DNA of 32,000 nucleotides from Candidatus Micrarchaeum sp. (GTDB lineage Archaea > Micrarchaeota > Micrarchaeia > Micrarchaeales > Micrarchaeaceae). The position numbers were made by a program, and so were the translations under genes. Location: positions 330,001-362,000 of the forward strand of contig NZ_CP060530.1 in the NCBI RefSeq assembly GCF_016806735.1. The letters run 5' to 3'. Below the pieces are notes generated by a model. It was not told where the DNA came from, ran no database searches, and was given only the letters and a program-made list of their open reading frames with translations. Shown in pieces: positions 1 through 31,697 of this stretch (positions within the stretch are counted from its first letter, which is position 1; the number at the start of each line of letters is the position of its first letter).

Positions 1-523
1 CGCTTACAACCCCTTGCGCTATCACCGAGTTGTTAGTTATGCTCTTTGGCCTTACCATCTGTATGAAAGGTGTTTCAAGGCTCAGGTTTGAGCCGTAAAA
101 CTCCATAGATACGTTAAGCGTTGAATTGGTGAACGGGTCCCTGTACGGAACTATTACAGACCAAGTGTTTGTCGATGGTTGATATGATACTTTTGATCTG
201 TTCAGGTAGGAATAATACGTAAGTATCGAAAGGCTTGAATTTATGTATTGGTAGTTGGCCAGTACCTTGCCTGCTGCATCGAGTACCTGGGACTGGTTAT
301 ATTTGGGCGTTATGCAGGTGCTGTTGCTTGAAACCCCGTATTGGCACACTATGACGGATTTGAAATTGGCCAGAGAAAATGACAACGCTATCAGCACTAT
401 TACCAGTGCTATTAGCCCTATGTGCAGGTAGTCCAAGCCCCCGTGCTTTGAGGCGCTTTTGACTAGGAATACTGGCTCCTTTGCGCCCTTTTGCTTTGCC
501 TTCTTTCCATCCATTCTTGCCAT
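1..523 (-). CDS. Partial CDS (3' end beyond the left edge): N-terminally membrane-anchored, sequon-rich extracytoplasmic protein of unknown function
   Basis: Absent from the ORF track because it runs off the window. Hand translation of the minus strand from ATG at 523-521 gives an open frame to position 1: MARMDGKKAKQKGAKEPVFLVKSASKHGGLDYLHIGLIALVIVLIALSFSLANFKSVIVCQYGVSSNSTCITPKYNQSQ... It has a basic N-terminus, one TM helix, then about eight N-x-S/T sequons in roughly 110 aa. The reverse complement was checked block by block. Confidence 0.55.
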   Translation of the reverse strand, partial: MARMDGKKAKQKGAKEPVFLVKSASKHGGLDYLHIGLIALVIVLIALSFSLANFKSVIVCQYGVSSNSTCITPKYNQSQVLDAAGKVLANYQYINSSLSILTYYSYLNRSKVSYQPSTNTWSVIVPYRDPFTNSTLNVSMEFYGSNLSLETPFIQMVRPKSITNNSVIAQGVVS

Positions 524-539
524 AAAACCACTTTACAGG

Positions 540-635
540 CGGGCCCGGCGGGATTTTCACCGGATCAAACCGAATTTGAACCCGCGACCTTCACCTTAGG
601 AGGGTGCCGCTCTATCCAAGCTGAGCTACGGGCCC
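540..635 (-). tRNA. tRNA-Arg (anticodon CCT) with a 21-nt intron in the T-loop (about 554..574)
   Basis: Minus-strand cloverleaf: acceptor GGGCCCG/CGGGCCC, D-stem GCTC/GAGC, anticodon stem GCACC/GGTGA with loop CTCCTAA, T-stem GCGGG/CCCGC, discriminator G. The T-loop TTCAAAT is interrupted by a 21-nt insert. Removing it leaves a 75-nt tRNA. Confidence 0.8.
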
Positions 636-707
636 GCATATATCACATATATCTTAGCAGGAAAAATTTATAATGAACTGATTTATACCTTTGTCTTTTT
701 TCCACCT

Positions 708-2600
708 TTACATGCGCTTTACCGGTGTCATGCCCAAAGAAAGCAGGAGTTCCGCCATCAGCTTCTCGAAAGCCTGCGTTATCGCCAGCCTTGCGCTTTT
801 GTCGCCTTCTTCCTGCGCCTTCAATATCGGCGTTGTCTCGTAGAATTTGCTGAATTCGCTTGCCAGAAGCGTCATGTACTCTATGACTATGTTTGGCTTG
901 CACTCCCTGACTGCCTTTTCAAGCACTGTCCGTGCGTAGGATATCCTTTTTATAAGGTCGAATTCCTGCTGGGAAACTGCATAATTCTCTCCCATCTCCT
1001 TATTGGTCTCTGCTCCGGGGCTTTCGAGTATTCTTTCCGCCCTTGCATGCGTATACTCGCAATACGGCCCGGAATTGCCCTCGAAGTTAAGCGCCCTGCT
1101 CCAAGAGAAAACCAGATTCTTCTCATTGGAAAGCTTGAGGAATTCGTATTTTATGGCCGACATGGCTATCTGGCTCGCGACTTCTGCCTTTTCTGCATCG
1201 CTGAGCTCGAACCTGTCGGTTATTAGCCTCGAAGCCTTCTCTTCTGCTTCCCTTATAAGGTCATCGCACGTATATCCGACCCATGTGCCCTTCCTTCCGG
1301 AAAGCGATATTCCCTCGAGCTCAACCACTCCATACGCTATATGCTTGATCTTTTCAGAATAGTCGCTACCTCCAAGCAGTGCTATCGCGAGCCTTACAAC
1401 CGCCTGCTCGTAGCTCTGCCTGGTGTCTATTGTATTTATTGCAACGTCGGCTGCTCCAAAATCCATCTGTGAGCCCTCAGCTCCTGTAGAGTAAAGCGGC
1501 TTCTTCTGGGATCCCTGCTCCATGAACATGTGATACGAGAAGCTGTTCGGCAGCAACCCAAGCTTCCACATATGGAAGGCGATGTCCTTGGCTACGTAAT
1601 TCGGAGCACCATTGCTCCTTACAAGAACCTTTACACCCTCCTTCAGTCCGCCGAAATCACTGGCAAGGTCTCCAAGCTTCGAATGCTCTATTACTATGCA
1701 GTTTGCATATTCTCCCTCTGATGGTTTTGTTATGATTCCCTTGCCTTGCATTTTATCCAGCGCCTCGTCAAGGAGCTTCTTCCTTACTATGTCGCTTTCC
1801 CATACAAGTACGTCGTGATATATGCCCATCTTTGCCAGTGTTTCGTATTCTGCCTTGACGAAGTTTTCAGCCATTTCCCTGGCTGTCTTTGATTCGTATG
1901 TCCCGTCCTGCTCCATGTTTACAAGTATCTGCGAAATCTCGTCCTTTATATTTTTGTCTTCGAGCAGCTTGTTCACAGCGACGTAGACCTCCCCTATCAT
2001 GCTGTCGAATTTCTTATTGCTGTCGAACGTTATGCCTATTTTCTCCATGTGCGACAGGCCCCAAATGACCTCAGCGACCTGCAGCCCCAAATCGTCTATA
2101 TAATCTTCACGCTCTACTTTGTATCCTGCCCTTTCGTGTAGATTTGCAATTCCATCGCCCAAAAGGACGTTCCTAACCTGGCCCATGTGCATCGGGTGTG
2201 CGGGGTTTATGCTAGGGTATTCTATTATGGCCTTCTTCCCGCTCCATGCCTTCGAGGAGAATATTTTTTCTTCGCTTACGGCGAAATCAACGACGTCCCT
2301 TGAATACGTATTGCGCTCTATGGTAAAATTTACAAAGCCGTTCTTCTGTGATACCTCCGCCACATATTTCGGCTTCGAGATGAGTTCTACTATATTCTTT
2401 GCCAGCTCTCCCGCATTCAGAGACTTTGCCTTCGCTATCCTCAAAACAACGCTAGAGGAGATGTCGCCGAACATCTTTGATGTGTCTATGCTCTTTGCTA
2501 TCTCCTCGTCGAATTCGCCATATCCCGCCCTGTCAAGGGCATCTTTCATTGAAGACCTTATCCCTTCAATCAATTCTCCATACGGTCCGTATTCATGCAT
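708..2600 (-). CDS. argS: Arginyl-tRNA synthetase
   Basis: Class I HIGH-like motif (NPAHPMHMGQVRN), ArgRS-type MSTRxG-like motif (LSGRKG) and a DALR-type C-terminal anticodon-binding region ending ...GMTPVKRM. The first ATG is at 2600 (MHEYGPYG...). The ORF track begins at a TTG at 2642, which would overlap the upstream gene by 20 nt. Confidence 0.9.
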   Translation of the reverse strand: MHEYGPYGELIEGIRSSMKDALDRAGYGEFDEEIAKSIDTSKMFGDISSSVVLRIAKAKSLNAGELAKNIVELISKPKYVAEVSQKNGFVNFTIERNTYSRDVVDFAVSEEKIFSSKAWSGKKAIIEYPSINPAHPMHMGQVRNVLLGDGIANLHERAGYKVEREDYIDDLGLQVAEVIWGLSHMEKIGITFDSNKKFDSMIGEVYVAVNKLLEDKNIKDEISQILVNMEQDGTYESKTAREMAENFVKAEYETLAKMGIYHDVLVWESDIVRKKLLDEALDKMQGKGIITKPSEGEYANCIVIEHSKLGDLASDFGGLKEGVKVLVRSNGAPNYVAKDIAFHMWKLGLLPNSFSYHMFMEQGSQKKPLYSTGAEGSQMDFGAADVAINTIDTRQSYEQAVVRLAIALLGGSDYSEKIKHIAYGVVELEGISLSGRKGTWVGYTCDDLIREAEEKASRLITDRFELSDAEKAEVASQIAMSAIKYEFLKLSNEKNLVFSWSRALNFEGNSGPYCEYTHARAERILESPGAETNKEMGENYAVSQQEFDLIKRISYARTVLEKAVRECKPNIVIEYMTLLASEFSKFYETTPILKAQEEGDKSARLAITQAFEKLMAELLLSLGMTPVKRM

Positions 2601-2622
2601 ATTATCATTCCGCAAAATCAAA

Positions 2623-4191
2623 TCAATAGCTAATCCTGTCAAACTCCTTTATAATTCTAGGTATGGAGACGGCCACGTCATATGCAGTTGCGTGAAGCCC
2701 CATCTCTTCATTCAGCATTTCTCCTATCTGGGTGTGAACATAAACGCCTGCGGCAGCAGACTCGAAAAGCGATCCTTTGTTTATCGATATGTAGCTGGCT
2801 ATTATGCCGGCAAGCACGTCTCCTGTTCCCATTGTAGAAAGCGTCGGGCTCTCGGCCTTGTTTATCTTTAGCCTGGTGCCGTCAGTTATTATGGTGTCGT
2901 TGCCTTTGAGCACAAGCGTGCATCCGTACGTTTTCGCGAAATCTATTGCGGTATATATCTTGGAATTGAGGTCGCGCTTTGAAAGGTCGATCCCGCACAA
3001 ATGCTTGAATTCTCCGGTGTGGGGAGTCAGCACCATGTTGCTTCCTATCAGGTTCTTGTACCTGGAAAGCATTTTGAGAGCAGCGGCATCTGCAACTATC
3101 CATTTGGATGCACTTTTCTCGTAAGCGAGAAGCTCGGAGAATCCTTTGTAGTCGAAGTAGTCTTCTTTTATTCCGGGCCCTATGACCATTGCTTCGTGTC
3201 TCACTGATTTTATTTCTGCTATGTCCTCTGCAGAAAATCTTTTTTTGGATATGGTCTTGAGTATGAGCTCAGGCATCGGCCTCTGCTCGTTTACCAAAGA
3301 ATCCTCTGGCGATATTACCGTTACATAACCAGAACCGGTTTTAAGCGCGGCCAGCGCATGCTCTGCCGCCATGCCTGACAACATTGGAGCTCCCCTGTAA
3401 TCCGAGCTGCCTCCAAGAACTGCAACAGTCCCGTGCTCGTACTTGTTCGCATTTATAAACCTCGGTTTTGTCGCGAGCATTACGTCCCCTGGTCCTGTCA
3501 TAAGCTCTACAGAGGTAGGTATGCCAGTGTTCAATATGTTTACTGAATAATCGGACTTGCCTTTTTCGAGAAAGCTCTTCATTTTGTGTATTGCAAAAAG
3601 CATGTCTGGGGCCACGGCGTTTATGTTTTTCGAGCCGGTGTCGCCGTTTACACCTGAAGGCACATCTATTGATATCACATATTTATTGGAGTCGTTTATC
3701 GCCCTGATTGCGCGTGACATCGTTTCGCCGAGTCGCCCATGCATGCCTATGCCTATTATGGCATCTACAACGTCGTCGGATTTTTTCAGCATGGACCTGA
3801 GCTTTCCGATGCCTTCGGAGTCTATAACCTCTATGTCGACTATGCTTTCCGCTATCCTGTAATTGAATTTCAGGCTGTCGCTGTGTATGTCATCCGGGTT
3901 TCCCAAGAAGGCAAGCTGCACGTCCGCGATGTCCATCAGGTGCCTTGCAGCGGCCATGCCTATGGCGCCCTTGCCGCCGGGCCCGCACACGAACGTTATC
4001 CTGTCATTCCTGTGCTTCCTGCTAAGGTTTTCAGCTATCGCTGCACCGGCAGTTTCGACCATGGACCTTTCGTTTATGCCCATCGCTTTGGCGTTTGCCA
4101 TTACCGCGTAAGCGTCGTCTATACTGAGGTACTTTTTTGTGTAAAGGACAAACTCTTTTAGCTTTTGCATCTTATTAATTCCGTAATTCAT
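2623..4191 (-). CDS. nnr: Bifunctional NAD(P)H-hydrate repair enzyme (YjeF_N epimerase fused to ADP-dependent dehydratase)
   Basis: N-terminal half has a glycine-rich loop in the YjeF_N position (FVCGPGGKGAIGMAAARHL). C-terminal half has carbohydrate-kinase-like motifs KYEHGTVAVLGGSSDYRGAPMLSGMAA and GTGDVLAGIIAS. 522 aa is typical for the fusion. Confidence 0.85.
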   Translation of the reverse strand: MNYGINKMQKLKEFVLYTKKYLSIDDAYAVMANAKAMGINERSMVETAGAAIAENLSRKHRNDRITFVCGPGGKGAIGMAAARHLMDIADVQLAFLGNPDDIHSDSLKFNYRIAESIVDIEVIDSEGIGKLRSMLKKSDDVVDAIIGIGMHGRLGETMSRAIRAINDSNKYVISIDVPSGVNGDTGSKNINAVAPDMLFAIHKMKSFLEKGKSDYSVNILNTGIPTSVELMTGPGDVMLATKPRFINANKYEHGTVAVLGGSSDYRGAPMLSGMAAEHALAALKTGSGYVTVISPEDSLVNEQRPMPELILKTISKKRFSAEDIAEIKSVRHEAMVIGPGIKEDYFDYKGFSELLAYEKSASKWIVADAAALKMLSRYKNLIGSNMVLTPHTGEFKHLCGIDLSKRDLNSKIYTAIDFAKTYGCTLVLKGNDTIITDGTRLKINKAESPTLSTMGTGDVLAGIIASYISINKGSLFESAAAGVYVHTQIGEMLNEEMGLHATAYDVAVSIPRIIKEFDRISY

Positions 4192-8438: not shown

Positions 8439-8525
8439 TAAAAAACCTGATCCGAGCGATGTAAGATTGAACGATGCTATATTTATTAAAAGGTAAATAA
8501 AATAAAGCTATACACATAGAGCAGT

Positions 8526-8611
8526 GCAGGGATGGCAGAGCCTGGCCAAATGCGACGGGTTTAGGGCCCGTTCCCGTAGAGGGTTCGAGAGTTCAAATCT
8601 CTCTCCCTGCA
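8526..8611 (+). tRNA. tRNA-Leu (anticodon TAG), class II with long variable arm, no intron
   Basis: Acceptor GCAGGGA/TCCCTGC, anticodon stem ACGGG/CCCGT with loop TTTAGGG, variable arm CCC-GTAGA-GGG, T-arm GAGAG-TTCAAAT-CTCTC, discriminator A. Confidence 0.9.
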
Positions 8612-8652
8612 ATAATAAATTTATTAATATCTAAATAAATCTACCTGGTTGA

Positions 8653-20215: not shown

Positions 20216-20312
20216 CTAAACACCATAAACATTATTAATTTGCTAAGGAAAGAATATTAAGCATAAGGTAGCAACCTTACCTGTGCTTTTGAAAAGGGGC
20301 GCGATATAAATT

Positions 20313-20891: not shown

Positions 20892-21002
20892 AAAAGCGCC
20901 TGCGCAAGCTAAAAATTGCTGATAATTCAACGGAACGAAATTATTTAGTATGTGTTTGCCAAAAGCTATACGTCCTATGAAGAAAAGAGTAACTGCTGAA
21001 CA

Positions 21003-22622
21003 ATGATGAAGCCCATTTCGGCTGAGGACTTTTACGGTGTTTTGATGGCAATAAGCAGCCATAAAGTAAGTGCTCGTGTGGCAGCCACGGCAATACTATT
21101 TATAGCATTCCTGGTAGCAGCGTACAACTCAATCGCCGTTACCGGATTCTCGATATCGGATTCCAACCCTGCCGGGTACATAATAGTCCCGATGCTCATG
21201 ACGCTGGTATTCATAATATTCTCGCTGAAGGAGAATCTCGTCATCATCTACAGAAAACGAAACCTCGCATACGGGGCAATCCTGGCATTGATATACTTTG
21301 CAATATATGCCTATTCAAAAGTGTCCTTGTCTTTCCTCTTCCAGACCTACAGGATAGATGCGCTGCTCTTTCCCATACTGCTATCGTCATTTGCCCTCAT
21401 TCTCTTTGGTCCGTCGGGCCTAAACAAGCTCAAGCCTGCTGTTGTGTTCTCCATATTCGCATCTCCTTTGATACTGATGCCATTGCTTAACCTGTCGGGT
21501 GCGTGGACGAGCTTCAACGCATATTCCGTTGTCTCTGTATTGAAGCTTTTCGGCGTTCCGGTCCTTAGCCACGGCCTTGAAATAACCGGTGCATCTGGCT
21601 CGTCGATATCCATAGCTTCAACATGCGCAGACATCGCAGCCTTTGTGGCGATGCTGCTCTTTCTGATACCGATAGCATACCTTTATGAAGGGAATCCTGG
21701 CAAGAGGGCCATATGGGTCGCTTCAGGAATGGTTCTTCTCTTCGTGCTTAACATAATCAGGATGTCGCTCATAGCAGCAGTATGGGCTTATTATGGGCTC
21801 AGCTCTGCGCTAAACACTGTGCATCTTTTTATAGGCCAGCTGCTCTTCGACATAACCCTGGTCGTCATGATACTTCTGGCGCCAAAATTCTCAATGCGCC
21901 TGGGTGTGCAGAGAACGGGGCAAAAGTACAGTCGCAGCACAAATTCAGGGGCATCCAATGGCGCAATCTTTGACAAGTCGTTCGCGGTTCCCGCACTTTC
22001 CGTAATAATTGTCGCATTCCTGGTATTCGCATTCACCTTGCCACAGGCAAGCTATCAATACATTAGCCCATTCTCATTCGCGGATAATTTCTCATACGTT
22101 TCCAATTCGAGCGTTATATCATCTTACGATGCCGTCGCCCTGGGATCTGGGTACAGCATGAAATCAGTGACCTTCGGGGGCAGGTCAGAGCTTTTCGGCA
22201 TATTCAGCACAAATGACATAAATACTACTACCAACAGCTTCCTTTACATCAACTCCAGCGCGAGACCTACAATGCCACGCATAAACCTGCATCAGCTCGG
22301 CACAATACTTATGCACAGGGAGGAATCAACAATTTCTGGAATAACTATAAATGCTTATGAAATATCATCAAATGGCAAGCTTTTCCAGGTGAACTACATA
22401 TCAATGCCAAATAAAATCTATGGCAATTACACTGTCGCTAACATGGAATTCGTAACCCTAATGAATTCTACCTCGGATTTACAATCCTGCAGAACAGAAT
22501 ACGGTGCAATACAAAGCGTTTATTCGTACATATACAACGCACTGCACTTTAGCTTCGAAGGAAACAACTACGGAATATTCTGCGCGGCGTTCAACGAAGC
22601 CAAATTGGCGCAGCAGAGGTAA
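21003..22622 (+). CDS. Exosortase/archaeosortase-family membrane protein with extra TM and about 190-aa C-terminal extracytoplasmic domain
   Basis: About 8 TM helices. Family-like blocks: VLKLFGVPVLSHGLEITGASGSSISIASTCADIAAF (conserved Cys, residue 208), FVLNIIRMSLIA (N-x-x-R, Arg253), NTVHLFIGQLLF (His274). A further TM (ALSVIIVAFLVFAFTL) is followed by a sequon-rich soluble domain. Confidence 0.65.
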   Translation: MMKPISAEDFYGVLMAISSHKVSARVAATAILFIAFLVAAYNSIAVTGFSISDSNPAGYIIVPMLMTLVFIIFSLKENLVIIYRKRNLAYGAILALIYFAIYAYSKVSLSFLFQTYRIDALLFPILLSSFALILFGPSGLNKLKPAVVFSIFASPLILMPLLNLSGAWTSFNAYSVVSVLKLFGVPVLSHGLEITGASGSSISIASTCADIAAFVAMLLFLIPIAYLYEGNPGKRAIWVASGMVLLFVLNIIRMSLIAAVWAYYGLSSALNTVHLFIGQLLFDITLVVMILLAPKFSMRLGVQRTGQKYSRSTNSGASNGAIFDKSFAVPALSVIIVAFLVFAFTLPQASYQYISPFSFADNFSYVSNSSVISSYDAVALGSGYSMKSVTFGGRSELFGIFSTNDINTTTNSFLYINSSARPTMPRINLHQLGTILMHREESTISGITINAYEISSNGKLFQVNYISMPNKIYGNYTVANMEFVTLMNSTSDLQSCRTEYGAIQSVYSYIYNALHFSFEGNNYGIFCAAFNEAKLAQQR

Positions 22623-23675: not shown

Positions 23676-24260
23676 TTACTGTGGGGGTGATATAATAAGT
23701 ACAGTGGTCGCCTTGCCAGCATCATATTTGTAATAAACTTTGTGACCAAGCTGGAACCTTTCTATGAGTCCCATCTTGTAGAGCCTGTTGAGCCTCGCGC
23801 ACGCGGCGTTCTTGCCCCTGTATCCCATGCCCTTTCTTATGTCTTCGGCACATGCCATGCTGTGCTCGGAAAGCTGTATGAACTGCATTATCTTTGCATC
23901 TATTGAAGATATCGCGAGCTGCTTTTGCGATTTTTCTATAGGATCATTAGCCTTTTCTTCTACGATTTCCTCTTCAACAGGCTCGTTGAGCTCCTGTTCG
24001 AGGTTGTTTATCTTGTCAAGCATCTGGCGAAGAACGAGCGTGGTCTTTTTGTTTTCGTCTATCATGTATTTGAGCAGAGAAAACAGCTGCGAGCTCGTCT
24101 CTGCTTCAGCGTTCCTGCCCTGGCTTTCGATTGTAGTTTTCTCCGAAGCCTTGGCCTCGGATATCTCGTTGAGCTGTTTCCTTAGGGATACGAGCTCATT
24201 TTCTATTTCCCTTTTTGTTCGCATCAGAACCAAAGCCCCATCACAACCAAAATCTTTCAT
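23676..24260 (-). CDS. Hypothetical coiled-coil protein with C-terminal winged-helix DNA-binding domain
   Basis: The N-terminal two thirds are charged heptad-like sequence (REIENELVSLRKQLNEISEAK..., LRQMLDKINNLEQELNE). The C-terminus DAKIMQFIQLSEHSMACAEDIRKGMGYRGKNAACARLNRLYKMGLIERFQLGHKVYYKY fits a MarR/ArsR-like wHTH. Confidence 0.55.
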   Translation of the reverse strand: MKDFGCDGALVLMRTKREIENELVSLRKQLNEISEAKASEKTTIESQGRNAEAETSSQLFSLLKYMIDENKKTTLVLRQMLDKINNLEQELNEPVEEEIVEEKANDPIEKSQKQLAISSIDAKIMQFIQLSEHSMACAEDIRKGMGYRGKNAACARLNRLYKMGLIERFQLGHKVYYKYDAGKATTVLIISPPQ

Positions 24261-24276
24261 GAACCTTGCATAACCG

Positions 24277-24330
24277 AATCACAAATGTTTCATGCAACAA
24301 TCATGATTCAATCACAAATATTGTGAATCA
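24277..24330 (-). promoter_or_regulatory. Repeated ATTTGTGATT motif and palindrome between a TATA-like box and the wHTH gene
   Basis: Minus strand: CTTTAAATATATTTTT (TATA-like), then TGATTCACAATATTTGTGATTGAATCA (contains the TCACAA-TAT-TTGTGA palindrome, plus-strand 24312..24326), and a second ATTTGTGATT copy 34 nt downstream (plus-strand 24277..24286). Confidence 0.3.
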
Positions 24331-24389: not shown

Positions 24390-25289
24390 TCAGCGCCTCC
24401 TGTTGAAGCGCTTCTTGCCGTCGAATTTCCTCCCGTGTCCATGCCCCTGCCTGTTGCTGTCATACTGCCTGGTGGGCTTTTCCTTGACCGGCGAGCTTGT
24501 TATGCGCTTTATGCCGTTGTCTATGTCTACCTTGAGCTTCTCAGCTATGAAATTCTTTGTATAATAGTCTGCCTTCAACGCCATTGTTATCTTGGTGGCG
24601 TAAAGCCTTGCTATCCTCCCTTTTATGTCCTTTCTTGCATTGGTCACTTCCGGGAGCTTGAATATGACTCCGTACTTCGGTGGCTTGCTTCCGAATTTTA
24701 TGTGCTTGAAAAGAGCCTTCTCTGCGCCTAGCAGCTGCACGGTGCTTGCAGGGAATGTTGCAAGCCTTTCCATGGAGCCGGCCTTGCTGAGAAGCTCTGC
24801 TGCTATTTTGTCGTCAGTAAGATAAGCGGTATTCGGGAGAAGCCTCTGCGACGCTGCGCTTATGTATAATTCAAGCTTGTCTATGGAATCGCTTATCTCG
24901 AGAAGCAGCTTAGCGTACTCTATGACTACGTTCCTTTCCTCGTCGCCCATGCGCCTGCCTATGCTGTCTTTCAGCTTCTTCTCTATAGATTCGGCCTTGC
25001 TCGCATCGCCTATGGCGCTTTCTATGGCTTCCCTGCCTATCTCCCTGTCGGAATTCAATATTAGGACCAGAGAAGCAAGAGCCTTGGGGCTGGATACGTT
25101 TATTTCAGGGAAGTACAAGCCGTACCATTCAGTCAGCCTCTCATAGAACAGGTTCTGCGACTTTACCGCTTCATTGTAGGCATTTATCGCCTGTATAAGT
25201 GCGTATTCCTCACTCTCGTAGTTAAGCTTTATCTTCTCCTTTGCGGTGCTTATCATGCGCTTTCTTAGCTCTTCGAAATCGTTTTCCAA
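24390..25289 (-). CDS. nop5: Nop5 (Nop56/58-family) C/D box sRNP core protein, lacking the N-terminal domain
   Basis: NOSIC/coiled-coil start ERLTEWYGLYFPEI. Nop-domain block LLGAEKALFKHIKFGSKPPKYGVIFKLPEV. Basic C-terminal tail (GHGHGRKFDGKKRFNRRR). Starts at TTG 25289 (first ATG at 25256). An in-frame TAA lies immediately upstream. Confidence 0.8.
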   Translation of the reverse strand: MENDFEELRKRMISTAKEKIKLNYESEEYALIQAINAYNEAVKSQNLFYERLTEWYGLYFPEINVSSPKALASLVLILNSDREIGREAIESAIGDASKAESIEKKLKDSIGRRMGDEERNVVIEYAKLLLEISDSIDKLELYISAASQRLLPNTAYLTDDKIAAELLSKAGSMERLATFPASTVQLLGAEKALFKHIKFGSKPPKYGVIFKLPEVTNARKDIKGRIARLYATKITMALKADYYTKNFIAEKLKVDIDNGIKRITSSPVKEKPTRQYDSNRQGHGHGRKFDGKKRFNRRR

Positions 25290-29291: not shown

Positions 29292-31697
29292 TTAATCCAT
29301 CTTCAGCTTCTTGAATACAGCCACCTTTACGAAATCGTTTATGAACAGCGCAGCCACGCCCAATCCTATTATTGTCAGCAGCTCGTAAGGGCTGAGCTTT
29401 GGCACGAATATGCCAAAGTAGGAAAGAATAAGGCCCACTGCAATTCCGAACGTTATTGCCAAAGCGAGCGTCTTGCTTGGCCTTGACTTCCAGAAGAAGC
29501 CCTTAGCTCTCATATTGAGCACGCTGAACTCGTTGGTTATGTTGAACATTACGAAAGTGGCGGTCTGGAAAGCGGGTATCGATAGGTTGAAAATTCCCCC
29601 TCTGAATATCGGGACAAGGGCCAGCGTTTCAAGCACAAGGAATATGCCTATTATCGCAGAGGAATACATCAGGCCCCTTACGTTCCATACGTCGGGGCTC
29701 CTAGAATATTCTGCGTTGTCCGTCGATATTGTTATGTTTATTATGTCGTTGGTAAATATCAATATTATCAGCATGAAAGGCAGTATGGTTATGAACCTGA
29801 AAAACAGGTACATTATGGCTATGAAGCCTATTATCTGGAATGTCTTGAGTATCTTTACGTCGGAATAGGTTATCATGCGCTGGAATATTCTCCTGCTCTC
29901 CTTCACCGCGTCAACGAAGACTTCTATTCCGTTTTTTGTAAGCACCAATGCGGCAGAGCTTTTAGCCACATCGGTAGCGCTTTCAACCGCTATGCCTACT
30001 TCTGCCTGCTTGAGCGCCGGTGCATCGTTGACTCCGTCCCCAGTCATTCCTACTATATAACCGTCTTTCTGCAAGGTTTTGACTATTGTGTATTTGTCTT
30101 CTGGGTAAACGTCTGCGAATCCTTCTGCGCTTACTATCTTTCTCTGAAGCTCCTTCTCGTTCTTGCGCTCAGCAGTAATGTCATATATCCTGTTTCCCAT
30201 CCCTACCTCGCTGGCTATCTGTGTCGCAACCTTTATGTTGTCCCCGGTTAGCATTTTTGTCTTGACTCCAAGCCCGTGCAGTTCGTCAACGAGCTCCTTT
30301 GCATCTTCTCTAGGGGCGTCGTATAAAGCCATGAGCCCGCAAAGGCTCCAGCGTTTTCCATCCTTGCTTTTGGCTATTGCTATTGTCCTGAATCCCTTGG
30401 AAGCATATTCTTCTACGGTCTTTAAAACTTCCTTCTTGTTTACCCTGCCTGTAATTCCGAGTGTCATTACCGTGTGTACTGCGCCCTTGGTTACGTAATA
30501 GCTGCCCTTCCCTGAACCTATTATGGCAGATGTCCTCTTTGTGGAAGGGTCGAACGGATAGAATTTTTTCTGCTGGCTCGTTTTTATCTTCTTTATGCCC
30601 GCATATTCTATCACTGCGTTGTCTATCGGGTCGTTGTCTTCTTTGCGCGAAGCCTCTACCGCATATTTTGCAATCTCGTCCTCAGAACTTCCAAAGCTTT
30701 TTATGGCCCTGACTGTTATCTCGTTCTTGGTTATCGTGCCGGTCTTGTCCATGCACAATATCTCCATGTTTGAAGTGTCCTCTATGGCTTCCAATTTGGT
30801 AACCAAAACGCCCTTCTTCGCGAGCTTTTCGGTTCCCAGCGCCATAGAAACTGTAAATGCTGCAGAAAGTGCAACTGGTACTGATGCTATCAAGAGGACG
30901 AGCAGGAACTTTATTATTATCAATATGTTCTGATGCAGCACGAACAGGCCGAACACAAGCATTATGATAAGTATTATCCCGTCGCCAAGGAGCAGGTATT
31001 TCACTATCCCCATTATCGCCTTCTGGAGATGCGACTTTACTCTTGCGTTCTGTACCAGCTTTGCAGTCTTGCCATATACTGTGTTATAACCAGTACCTAT
31101 GACTATGCATAAAGCCTCTCCTCTTTTTGCCGTCGAGCCCTGCCTTAAAAGGTCGCCTTCCTTCTTTCCTTGCGGCATAGATTCTCCTGTAATTATGGAC
31201 TCGTCAACCTGCAGCTCCTCTGGCTCTATTACCTTGCAGTCTGCTGGTATTATGTCCCCGAGCTTTACCTTTATTATGTCCCCAGGTACAAGCATCTTGG
31301 CCTTTATAACCTGCCATCTGTTGTCCCTCAAAACGCGTGCAGAGCTGGAAAGCCTTTCCTTCAGCGCATCTACGGATTCATCGGCCCTGTATTCTTCTAT
31401 GAAGCCTATTATGGCGTTGAAAACGAGAAGGGCAGTTATTATATATACGTCCCTGATGCTGTTGAGTATATATGAGAGTATTATTACTACTATTAGGATT
31501 AGCTGTACTGGGCCTGTGAACTTTCTTAGGAATATGAGCGCGTAGTTGGGCTTCTTTCCAACTATCTCGTTGTAGCCGTATGACCCTATGCGTTTATCCG
31601 CCTCCTTTGATGAGAGCCCTTTCGTGCTCGAACCAAGCGCCTTGTAAGTCTGCTTAAGGTCAAGCTTCTCTATCTTTTCAGACTCTATCTCCTCCAT
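29292..31697 (-). CDS. P-type ATPase, plasma-membrane proton-pump-like (P3A type)
   Basis: CMDKTGTITKNE (DKTGT phosphorylation site), TGES actuator motif, MLTGDN, MTGDGVNDAPALKQAEVGIAV hinge. The segment VLRDNRWQVIKAKMLVPGDIIKVKLGDIIPADCKV...VDESIITGES closely tracks plant/fungal H+-ATPases. About 10 TM helices, 801 aa. Confidence 0.9.
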   Translation of the reverse strand: MEEIESEKIEKLDLKQTYKALGSSTKGLSSKEADKRIGSYGYNEIVGKKPNYALIFLRKFTGPVQLILIVVIILSYILNSIRDVYIITALLVFNAIIGFIEEYRADESVDALKERLSSSARVLRDNRWQVIKAKMLVPGDIIKVKLGDIIPADCKVIEPEELQVDESIITGESMPQGKKEGDLLRQGSTAKRGEALCIVIGTGYNTVYGKTAKLVQNARVKSHLQKAIMGIVKYLLLGDGIILIIMLVFGLFVLHQNILIIIKFLLVLLIASVPVALSAAFTVSMALGTEKLAKKGVLVTKLEAIEDTSNMEILCMDKTGTITKNEITVRAIKSFGSSEDEIAKYAVEASRKEDNDPIDNAVIEYAGIKKIKTSQQKKFYPFDPSTKRTSAIIGSGKGSYYVTKGAVHTVMTLGITGRVNKKEVLKTVEEYASKGFRTIAIAKSKDGKRWSLCGLMALYDAPREDAKELVDELHGLGVKTKMLTGDNIKVATQIASEVGMGNRIYDITAERKNEKELQRKIVSAEGFADVYPEDKYTIVKTLQKDGYIVGMTGDGVNDAPALKQAEVGIAVESATDVAKSSAALVLTKNGIEVFVDAVKESRRIFQRMITYSDVKILKTFQIIGFIAIMYLFFRFITILPFMLIILIFTNDIINITISTDNAEYSRSPDVWNVRGLMYSSAIIGIFLVLETLALVPIFRGGIFNLSIPAFQTATFVMFNITNEFSVLNMRAKGFFWKSRPSKTLALAITFGIAVGLILSYFGIFVPKLSPYELLTIIGLGVAALFINDFVKVAVFKKLKMD

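Follow-up and report, generated by a model that had tools for sequence, protein, structure and literature searches.

In ARMAN-2 (Ca. Micrarchaeum acidiphilum), 56% of the tRNA genes are interrupted, and introns at position 59/60 occur in tRNA-Cys(GCA) and tRNA-Pro(GGG) (PMC3239211). The ARMAN-2 pre-tRNA-Pro(GGG) carries two introns of the strict hBHBh' form, at 53/54 and 59/60 (Fujishima et al. 2011, PMC3239211). The broad-specificity ε2 splicing endonuclease (EndA) of ARMAN-2 has been published (PMC3239211, PMC3488258, PMC12397907). This three-unit enzyme cleaves both strict and relaxed bulge-helix-bulge (BHB) motifs in vitro (PMC3239211), and its structure has been solved both alone and with BHB RNA (PMC3488258, PMC12397907). 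An ε2 EndA has also been reported for Mancarchaeum (PMC5829648). Noncanonical introns correlate with an endonuclease that bears an extra specificity loop (PMC3239211, PMC5829648). BHB introns outside 37/38 are also found in Thermoproteales and other archaea with an (αβ)2 EndA, and those of Thermoproteales have been described as recent gains by transposition, according to the passage of PMC3239211 that cites this view.

The tRNA-Arg(CCT) gene described here lies in a 32,000-nt stretch of the Candidatus Micrarchaeum contig NZ_CP060530.1 (hereafter the window) and is interrupted in its T-loop. It resembles ARMAN-2 pre-tRNA-Pro(GGG) in the genus-level lineage, in the 59/60 T-loop site, and in the strict 3-4-3 hBHBh' motif built on the T stem, but it specifies Arg(CCT) and contains one intron rather than two. 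The intron shares its position and the presumed enzyme family with the relaxed hBH form; unlike that form, the window copy is by its sequence of the strict hBHBh' type and has an inner helix of 4 bp. The location outside 37/38 is shared with the introns of Thermoproteales and the other archaea with an (αβ)2 EndA. The canonical 37/38 intron of archaea and eukaryotes follows the same BHB recognition logic and presumably depends on the same cleavage and ligation enzymes, but the central helix of the window intron uses T-loop bases 54–57 and not bases of the anticodon loop. The mechanism is not new, as the 59/60 BHB class has already been published for Micrarchaeum (ARMAN-2). We regard the locus, with a probability of roughly 0.93, as a tRNA-Arg(CCT) gene that is functional, belongs to an ultrasmall acid-mine archaeon of the genus Micrarchaeum (DPANN), and has a 21-nt BHB intron between positions 59 and 60 of the T-loop. 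The present analysis shows how the gene is built, that it can form a BHB, that the register is 59/60, that the exons are under purifying selection, and that the structure of the intron is conserved while its sequence turns over.

A protein named Candidatus Micrarchaeum sp. (QRF73849.1 / WP_203134966.1) is identical to the ThrRS that the window encodes, and it also occurs in the assemblies GCA_001889985.1, GCA_002503145.1, and GCA_002503225.1. This agrees with the first-pass annotation, which had named some ultrasmall archaea, next to Thermoproteales, as lineages with introns at such positions. The relatives of the window ArgRS are named Micrarchaeota, Micrarchaeia, or Micrarchaeaceae. The GC content of the window is ~46%, and that of the Ca. 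Micrarchaeum harzensis A_DKE genome (CP060530) is 45.8% (PMC8975820). We infer that the host is most likely this cultivated strain, Ca. Micrarchaeum harzensis A_DKE.

The interrupted gene occupies positions 540..635 on the minus strand, with a precursor of 96 nt, a spliced form of 75 nt, and the discriminator G73 at 540. From 635 to 540 on the minus strand, it consists of GGGCCCG, TA, GCTC, AGCTTGGATA, GAGC, G, GCACC, CTCCTAA, GGTGA, and AGGTC, followed by the T arm and then by CGGGCCC and G. The anticodon loop CTCCTAA is 7 nt long and contains the CCT anticodon, as read from the sequence and as reported by ARAGORN for the spliced form. CCA is not encoded; the bases after G73 are CCT. The T arm (585..548, minus) reads GCGGG, TTCA, AAT, TCGG, TTTGAT, CCGG, TGAA, AAT, and CCCGC, which matches exactly what the first-pass annotation had written. 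The 5' exon (575..635, minus; tRNA positions 1–59) ends with the T-loop bases T54, T55, C56, A57, A58, and A59, and the 3' exon (540..553, minus) comprises T60, the T-stem strand CCCGC, the acceptor strand CGGGCCC, and G73. The predicted 21-nt BHB intron TTCGGTTTGATCCGGTGAAAA (554..574, minus) separates tRNA positions 59 and 60.

The interrupted T arm has BHB geometry. The exon strand TTCA (577..580, minus; positions 54–57) and the intron strand TGAA (556..559, minus) form a central 4-bp helix between two opposite-strand 3-nt bulges, both AAT, at the 5' splice site (574..576, minus) and the 3' splice site (553..555, minus). The outer helix is the 5-bp T stem, which stacks on the acceptor stem. 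The inner helix is the stem TCGG/CCGG (573..570 and 563..560) of the intron hairpin (560..573, minus), closed by the loop TTTGAT (569..564). Thus, the window copy possesses both the outer (h) and the inner (h') helix of the hBHBh' form. The 21-nt insertion, the TTCA/TGAA helix, the two bulges, and the assignment of the T stem and TCGG/CCGG as outer and inner helices had all been proposed from a first reading of the DNA, and all of them hold on the sequence. Deletion of 574..554 in silico left 75 nt, for which ARAGORN drew a tRNA-Arg(cct) cloverleaf free of defects: the 7 bp of the acceptor stem are all intact, the T stem has 5 bp, and the 7-nt T-loop is TTCAAAT. This is the splicing product that the first reading had foreseen. 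At the predicted exon-exon junction, GGGUUCAAA is joined to UCCCGCC in the RNA, that is, GGGTTCAAA to TCCCGCC in DNA letters for the 59/60 junction.

In the proposed precursor, T-loop bases UUCA (54–57) would pair with UGAA of the intron to give the 4-bp central helix, with the T stem as the outer helix and the intron hairpin UCGG/CCGG as the inner helix. One bulge would be formed by A58, A59, and the first intron base, and the opposite bulge by the last two intron bases and U60. As judged from the literature, EndA, which is of the three-unit ε2 type in this genus, would cut after the second base of each bulge. One predicted cut separates A59 (575) from the first base of the intron (574), and the other separates 554 from T60 (553). 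According to published work on the enzyme family, these cuts would leave a 2',3'-cyclic phosphate and a 5'-OH, and an RtcB-type ligase assisted by archease would be expected, also from published work, to join the exons. The outcome would be a 75-nt tRNA with a normal 7-nt T-loop UUCAAAU, to which CCA would be added afterwards.

An archease gene (PF01951; 20445..20891, minus) was located in the window from the gene tables of near-identical loci. Archease is a cofactor of the RtcB tRNA-splicing ligase, and part of the splicing machinery is therefore encoded in the same window. For the endonuclease, fragments of ARMAN-2 EndA (4FZ2) were recovered from PDB alignments and used as the homologue query. 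They retrieved 1415 homologues; the 120 listed are ~385–390 aa long and, where the organism is named, come mostly from Micrarchaeota. None of the 11 homologue clusters inspected contained the EndA of the genome from which the window comes. A strict hBHBh' motif such as that of the window may do without a broad-specificity EndA such as the three-unit ε2 type with its ARMAN-specific loop.

The first-pass annotation had stated that the insertion folds into a textbook BHB. The geometry of the motif stood, and the thermodynamic certainty implied by this wording did not. In the minimum-energy structure calculated by RNAfold, the inner hairpin forms, and the central A/U-rich TTCA/TGAA helix remains open. 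The BHB conformer has −13.3 vs −13.4 kcal/mol for the minimum-energy fold of the T arm, and −38.6 vs −38.9 kcal/mol for the whole precursor. The BHB is thus calculated to be one of two isoenergetic conformers and to be energetically accessible. The folding z-scores were weak (−2.3 and −2.0). With the central helix unformed and such z-scores, thermodynamic folding was dropped as a proof of the BHB.

By itself, the BHB motif is also not statistically special. Both strands of the window were scanned for strict BHB-shaped patterns (outer helix of at least 5 bp, inner helix of at least 4 bp), with dinucleotide-shuffled sequences as the control. Four strict matches were found vs a mean of 6.1 in the shuffles, and looser settings gave 43 vs 48.2. 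The BHB-shaped pattern alone is therefore not rarer than chance and is no proof of an intron. Since the counts were at chance level, the other strict matches, at 24258..24305 and 20219..20287 (both minus) and at 29736..29796 (plus), were taken as chance occurrences, and the case for the intron rests on its tRNA context and on the comparison of orthologues.

For this comparison, a profile search for ArgRS with one genome per species (GTDB representatives) gave 80 Micrarchaeota loci. An ArgRS-linked tRNA-Arg(CCT) gene could be parsed in 41 of the 80 species loci, 36 with a T-loop insertion and 5 without. In three further species loci (L028, L032, and L041), the gene has a canonical 37/38 intron and no T-loop intron; ARAGORN with the -i option gave an anticodon-loop intron of ~30–32 nt in L028 and L041. 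Two truncated loci, L081 and L090, likewise contain an anticodon-loop intron and no T-loop intron. Across all loci, there were 46 distinct pre-tRNA sequences, 41 of which have an insertion of 13–42 nt at the same site as in the window. In relatives whose ArgRS is 89%, 75%, 64%, and 61% identical to that of the window, the insertion is 21 nt with a different loop, 22 nt, 31 nt, and 29 nt, respectively. In close relatives, the loop of the inner hairpin is TCTTAC or TTTAAT instead of TTTGAT. A Mancarchaeum acidiphilum-type genome (ArgRS ~48% identical) has a 15-nt insertion at the same site without an inner helix, and the inner helix is also missing from the short introns of 13–16 nt (e.g., L016, L058, and L077), which resemble the relaxed hBH form.

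Both bulges in the window copy are AAT, and several cuts would give the same product; the cut register therefore cannot be read from the window alone. Five registers were compared across the 41 distinct intron-bearing orthologues, and only 59/60 yields the T-loop TTCAAAT in 41/41. Registers 57/58 and 58/59 yield it in 37/41, and register 60/61 in 11/41. The same T-loop TTCAAAT is present in all five intron-less orthologues. EndA cuts after the second base of each BHB bulge, and the register test agrees with this rule. The position of about 59/60 that had been assigned from the window sequence is thereby borne out.

The splice-site structure varies little among these orthologues. All four pairs of the central helix are kept in 37 of the 41, and three of the four pairs in the other 4. 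TGAA is replaced by TGGA in six orthologues, with pairing kept as a T-G wobble. The 5' bulge is AAN and the 3' bulge is ANT in 41/41. An inner stem is present in most orthologues, with unrelated sequence between lineages. The sum of terminal pairs of the inner stem was 146 vs 29.6 ± 6.7 in shuffles (maximum 58). Its first four pairs were standard in 113/136 cells and of many pair types, compared to 36–42% when the 3' partner was slid by 1–2 positions. The structure of the intron is thus conserved despite turnover of its sequence.

The exons were compared across the 46 orthologues. Pairing is 100% standard in the acceptor, D, and T stems, and likewise in the anticodon stem from 28:42 to 31:39. 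The D stem does not vary; the other three stems all show compensatory changes. In the acceptor and T stems, the two partners of each pair lie on opposite sides of the insertion. At 6:67, 25 sequences have CG and 20 have TA; at 50:64, CG occurs in 30 and TA in 14. The top pair of the anticodon stem, 27:43 (607 and 591 in the window), is a G-A mismatch. This pair is nonstandard in 43/46 orthologues (GA in 33, AA in 6, and AG in 4), and the mismatch is a conserved peculiarity of this tRNA-Arg(CCT).

The surroundings of the gene are conserved as well. The ArgRS gene (708..2600, minus; 630 aa, ATG at 2600) matches PF03485, PF00750, and PF05746, and its homologues are annotated as arginine--tRNA ligase. 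The tRNA-Arg(CCT) gene follows 72 nt downstream on the same strand. This linkage is found in at least 44 of the 80 Micrarchaeota species loci, namely the 41 parsed loci and the 3 with a canonical intron, and the same-strand pairing of ArgRS and tRNA-Arg(CCT) is seen in the window (540..2642, minus) and in loci L007–L097. The conserved gene order is YjeF, ArgRS, tRNA-Arg(CCT), a 347-aa open reading frame (ORF), and DUF460. A TATA-box-like element, TTATAAAT (666..673, minus), is located 31–38 nt upstream of the 5' end of the tRNA. The seven sequences of alignment A1 hardly differ in the block that contains it, whereas the nearby spacer varies, and a TATAAAT-type box is found at a similar distance in L014 and L015. 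TTATAAAT is accordingly a putative archaeal promoter of tRNA-Arg(CCT). On the other side of the gene, the conserved 347-aa ORF, which has no Pfam match, starts 17 nt after the tRNA discriminator (521..539, minus), and the stretch AGTGGTTTTATG ahead of this ORF is conserved. With this spacing, the 3' trailer of the tRNA overlaps the translation start region of the ORF.

The gene could in principle be a decaying pseudogene with an insertion scar, the work being done by an intact tRNA-Arg(CCT) elsewhere in the genome. We consider this very unlikely. The gene at this locus is indeed intron-less in five related species (L030, L035, L047, L069, and L072). Decay is, however, contradicted by the conservation of the exons, stems, BHB, and TATA-like box. 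In the four relatives with ArgRS identities of 89%, 75%, 64%, and 61%, all 75 exon bases are identical to those of the window, even where the ArgRS is only 61% identical, whereas the flanks and the intron interior diverge. The stems are fully standard-paired with compensatory changes, a cleavable BHB is kept in all 41 distinct intron-bearing orthologues, and the TATA-like box upstream of the gene is conserved.

Another explanation is that the insertion is never removed, and that the mature tRNA has an enlarged T-loop or an extra arm. This is highly improbable. An insertion that ranges from 13 to 42 nt with unrelated sequences does not fit a structural module of the mature tRNA, and what is conserved in it is exactly the recognition geometry of the endonuclease, that is, a 4-bp helix and two 3-nt bulges in a fixed register. 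The intron-less orthologues have a standard 7-nt T-loop, and EndA removes an insertion of the same class from the tRNA-Cys of ARMAN-2 in vitro (PMC3239211).

The least credible of these explanations is an ordinary intron-less tRNA-Arg at 560/561..636, with the downstream CCCGCCGGGCCCG as a mere flank. ARAGORN run on the window does report an intron-less tRNA-Arg(CCT) at 560..636, and the Rfam tRNA model gives an intron-less match at 561..635 with 34.1 bits, above the gathering threshold of 29. Both calls, however, take bases of the intron for the 3' half of the T and acceptor stems. In the unspliced tRNA, two mismatches as well as two G-U pairs would fall in the acceptor stem, and the T stem would be defective. 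The ARAGORN call also vanishes in the relatives L011, L012, and L013, in which the intron differs by a few bases and the exons are identical. In contrast, the 3' exon of the interrupted gene co-varies with the 5' exon in the 46 orthologues. The covariance-model check suggested in the first-pass annotation was made by proxy, with intron-less orthologues scored on RF00005 in place of the spliced sequence itself. The intron-less orthologue L047, which is 74/75 identical to the spliced product (C30 to T), scored 61.9 bits vs 34.1 for the unspliced call, and the four other intron-less orthologues scored 59.4–66 bits. The proxy result therefore sides with the spliced tRNA-Arg. A group I or II intron or the scar of a mobile element was set aside in view of the short length of 21 nt and the BHB structure.

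Standard tRNA finders thus go wrong on this gene: the 3' half is misassigned by both ARAGORN and Rfam, and in close relatives ARAGORN overlooks the gene altogether. Annotation errors are expected across Micrarchaeota as a result, and tRNA-Arg(CCT) will be misreported or missing in many of these genomes unless the search mode allows noncanonical introns. Another tRNA gene in the window, tRNA-Leu(TAG) at 8525..8612 (plus), was found by ARAGORN. The Rfam tRNA model gave no match to it even at E ≤ 5. By eye, this tRNA-Leu is normal, with a long variable arm, a 3-bp D stem, and no intron.

The window also contains a C/D-box sRNA-like element at 20973..21027 (plus). It matches Rfam sR14 below the threshold (34.1 bits, threshold 38, E = 1.2e-5), and also sR9, sR22, sR2, and sR10. 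Inspection by eye reveals a C box (ATGAAGA), a D' box (CTGA), a C' box (ATGATGA), a D box (CTGA), and a terminal stem GTCC/GGAC. Because this element overlaps the predicted ATG at 21003 of a 539-aa exosortase-like ORF (21003..22622), that start may be mis-called. Near the C/D-box-like element lies a gene for Nop5 (24390..25289, minus).

Some of the loci with Micrarchaeota-type ArgRS and tRNA-Arg come from metagenome-assembled genome (MAG) records that carry other taxon names. These include L019 (JAVYSI010000004.1), L034 (DATJLP010000003.1), L020, and others, and the labels on such records are 'Methanothrix sp.', 'Candidatus Acidoferrum sp.', and 'Candidatus Marsarchaeota'. The odd labels probably reflect binning contamination or mislabelling.

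The comparison also bears on the history of the intron. Species with the insertion at this site extend down to an ArgRS identity of ~41% with the window, and closer relatives have more similar introns. JGI metagenome contigs were searched for these exons in spliced form or in an allele that lacks the intron, and neither was found; the three matches obtained all carry an intron (22 or 30 nt). With one site in one tRNA of dozens of species, and with intron similarity that tracks kinship, the pattern resembles that of an old intron that was inherited vertically and lost now and then. The species with a canonical intron and those without an intron indicate that the intron has changed position or been lost within the phylum. 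This single-site distribution in dozens of Micrarchaeota species differs from the situation in Thermoproteales.

Apart from what the supplementary table of tRNAs in Fujishima et al. (2011) may list for ARMAN-2, the tRNA-Arg(CCT) gene of the window has probably not been described individually. The phylum-wide picture may be new: one synthetase-linked tRNA site is kept across deep divergence, the interior of the intron turns over fully, the intron is lost now and then, and a canonical intron takes its place in a few lineages. It is a modest addition to a known mechanism and provides a comparative set of 41 distinct same-site introns, 5 intron-less genes, and 3 genes with a canonical intron.

It is conceivable, as a conjecture that we hold to be rather doubtful, that the T-loop intron is an ancient feature kept by selection across Micrarchaeota and goes beyond a tolerated insertion. 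If so, the intron could sequester bases 54–57, such that modification and folding of the T-loop would occur only after splicing, which would act as a maturation checkpoint. Another possible role is to deprive integrating elements of a target by disrupting the 3' half of the gene. The arrangement of ArgRS followed by tRNA-Arg might add coupled expression.

For the splicing machinery of this group, the orthologous introns of 13–42 nt include strict as well as relaxed BHB motifs and offer a natural series of substrates for a structurally characterized ε2 endonuclease. For the evolution of tRNA introns, the tRNA-Arg(CCT) genes of Micrarchaeota suggest that a noncanonical intron can be old and vertically inherited, in contrast to the picture of recent transposition in Thermoproteales.
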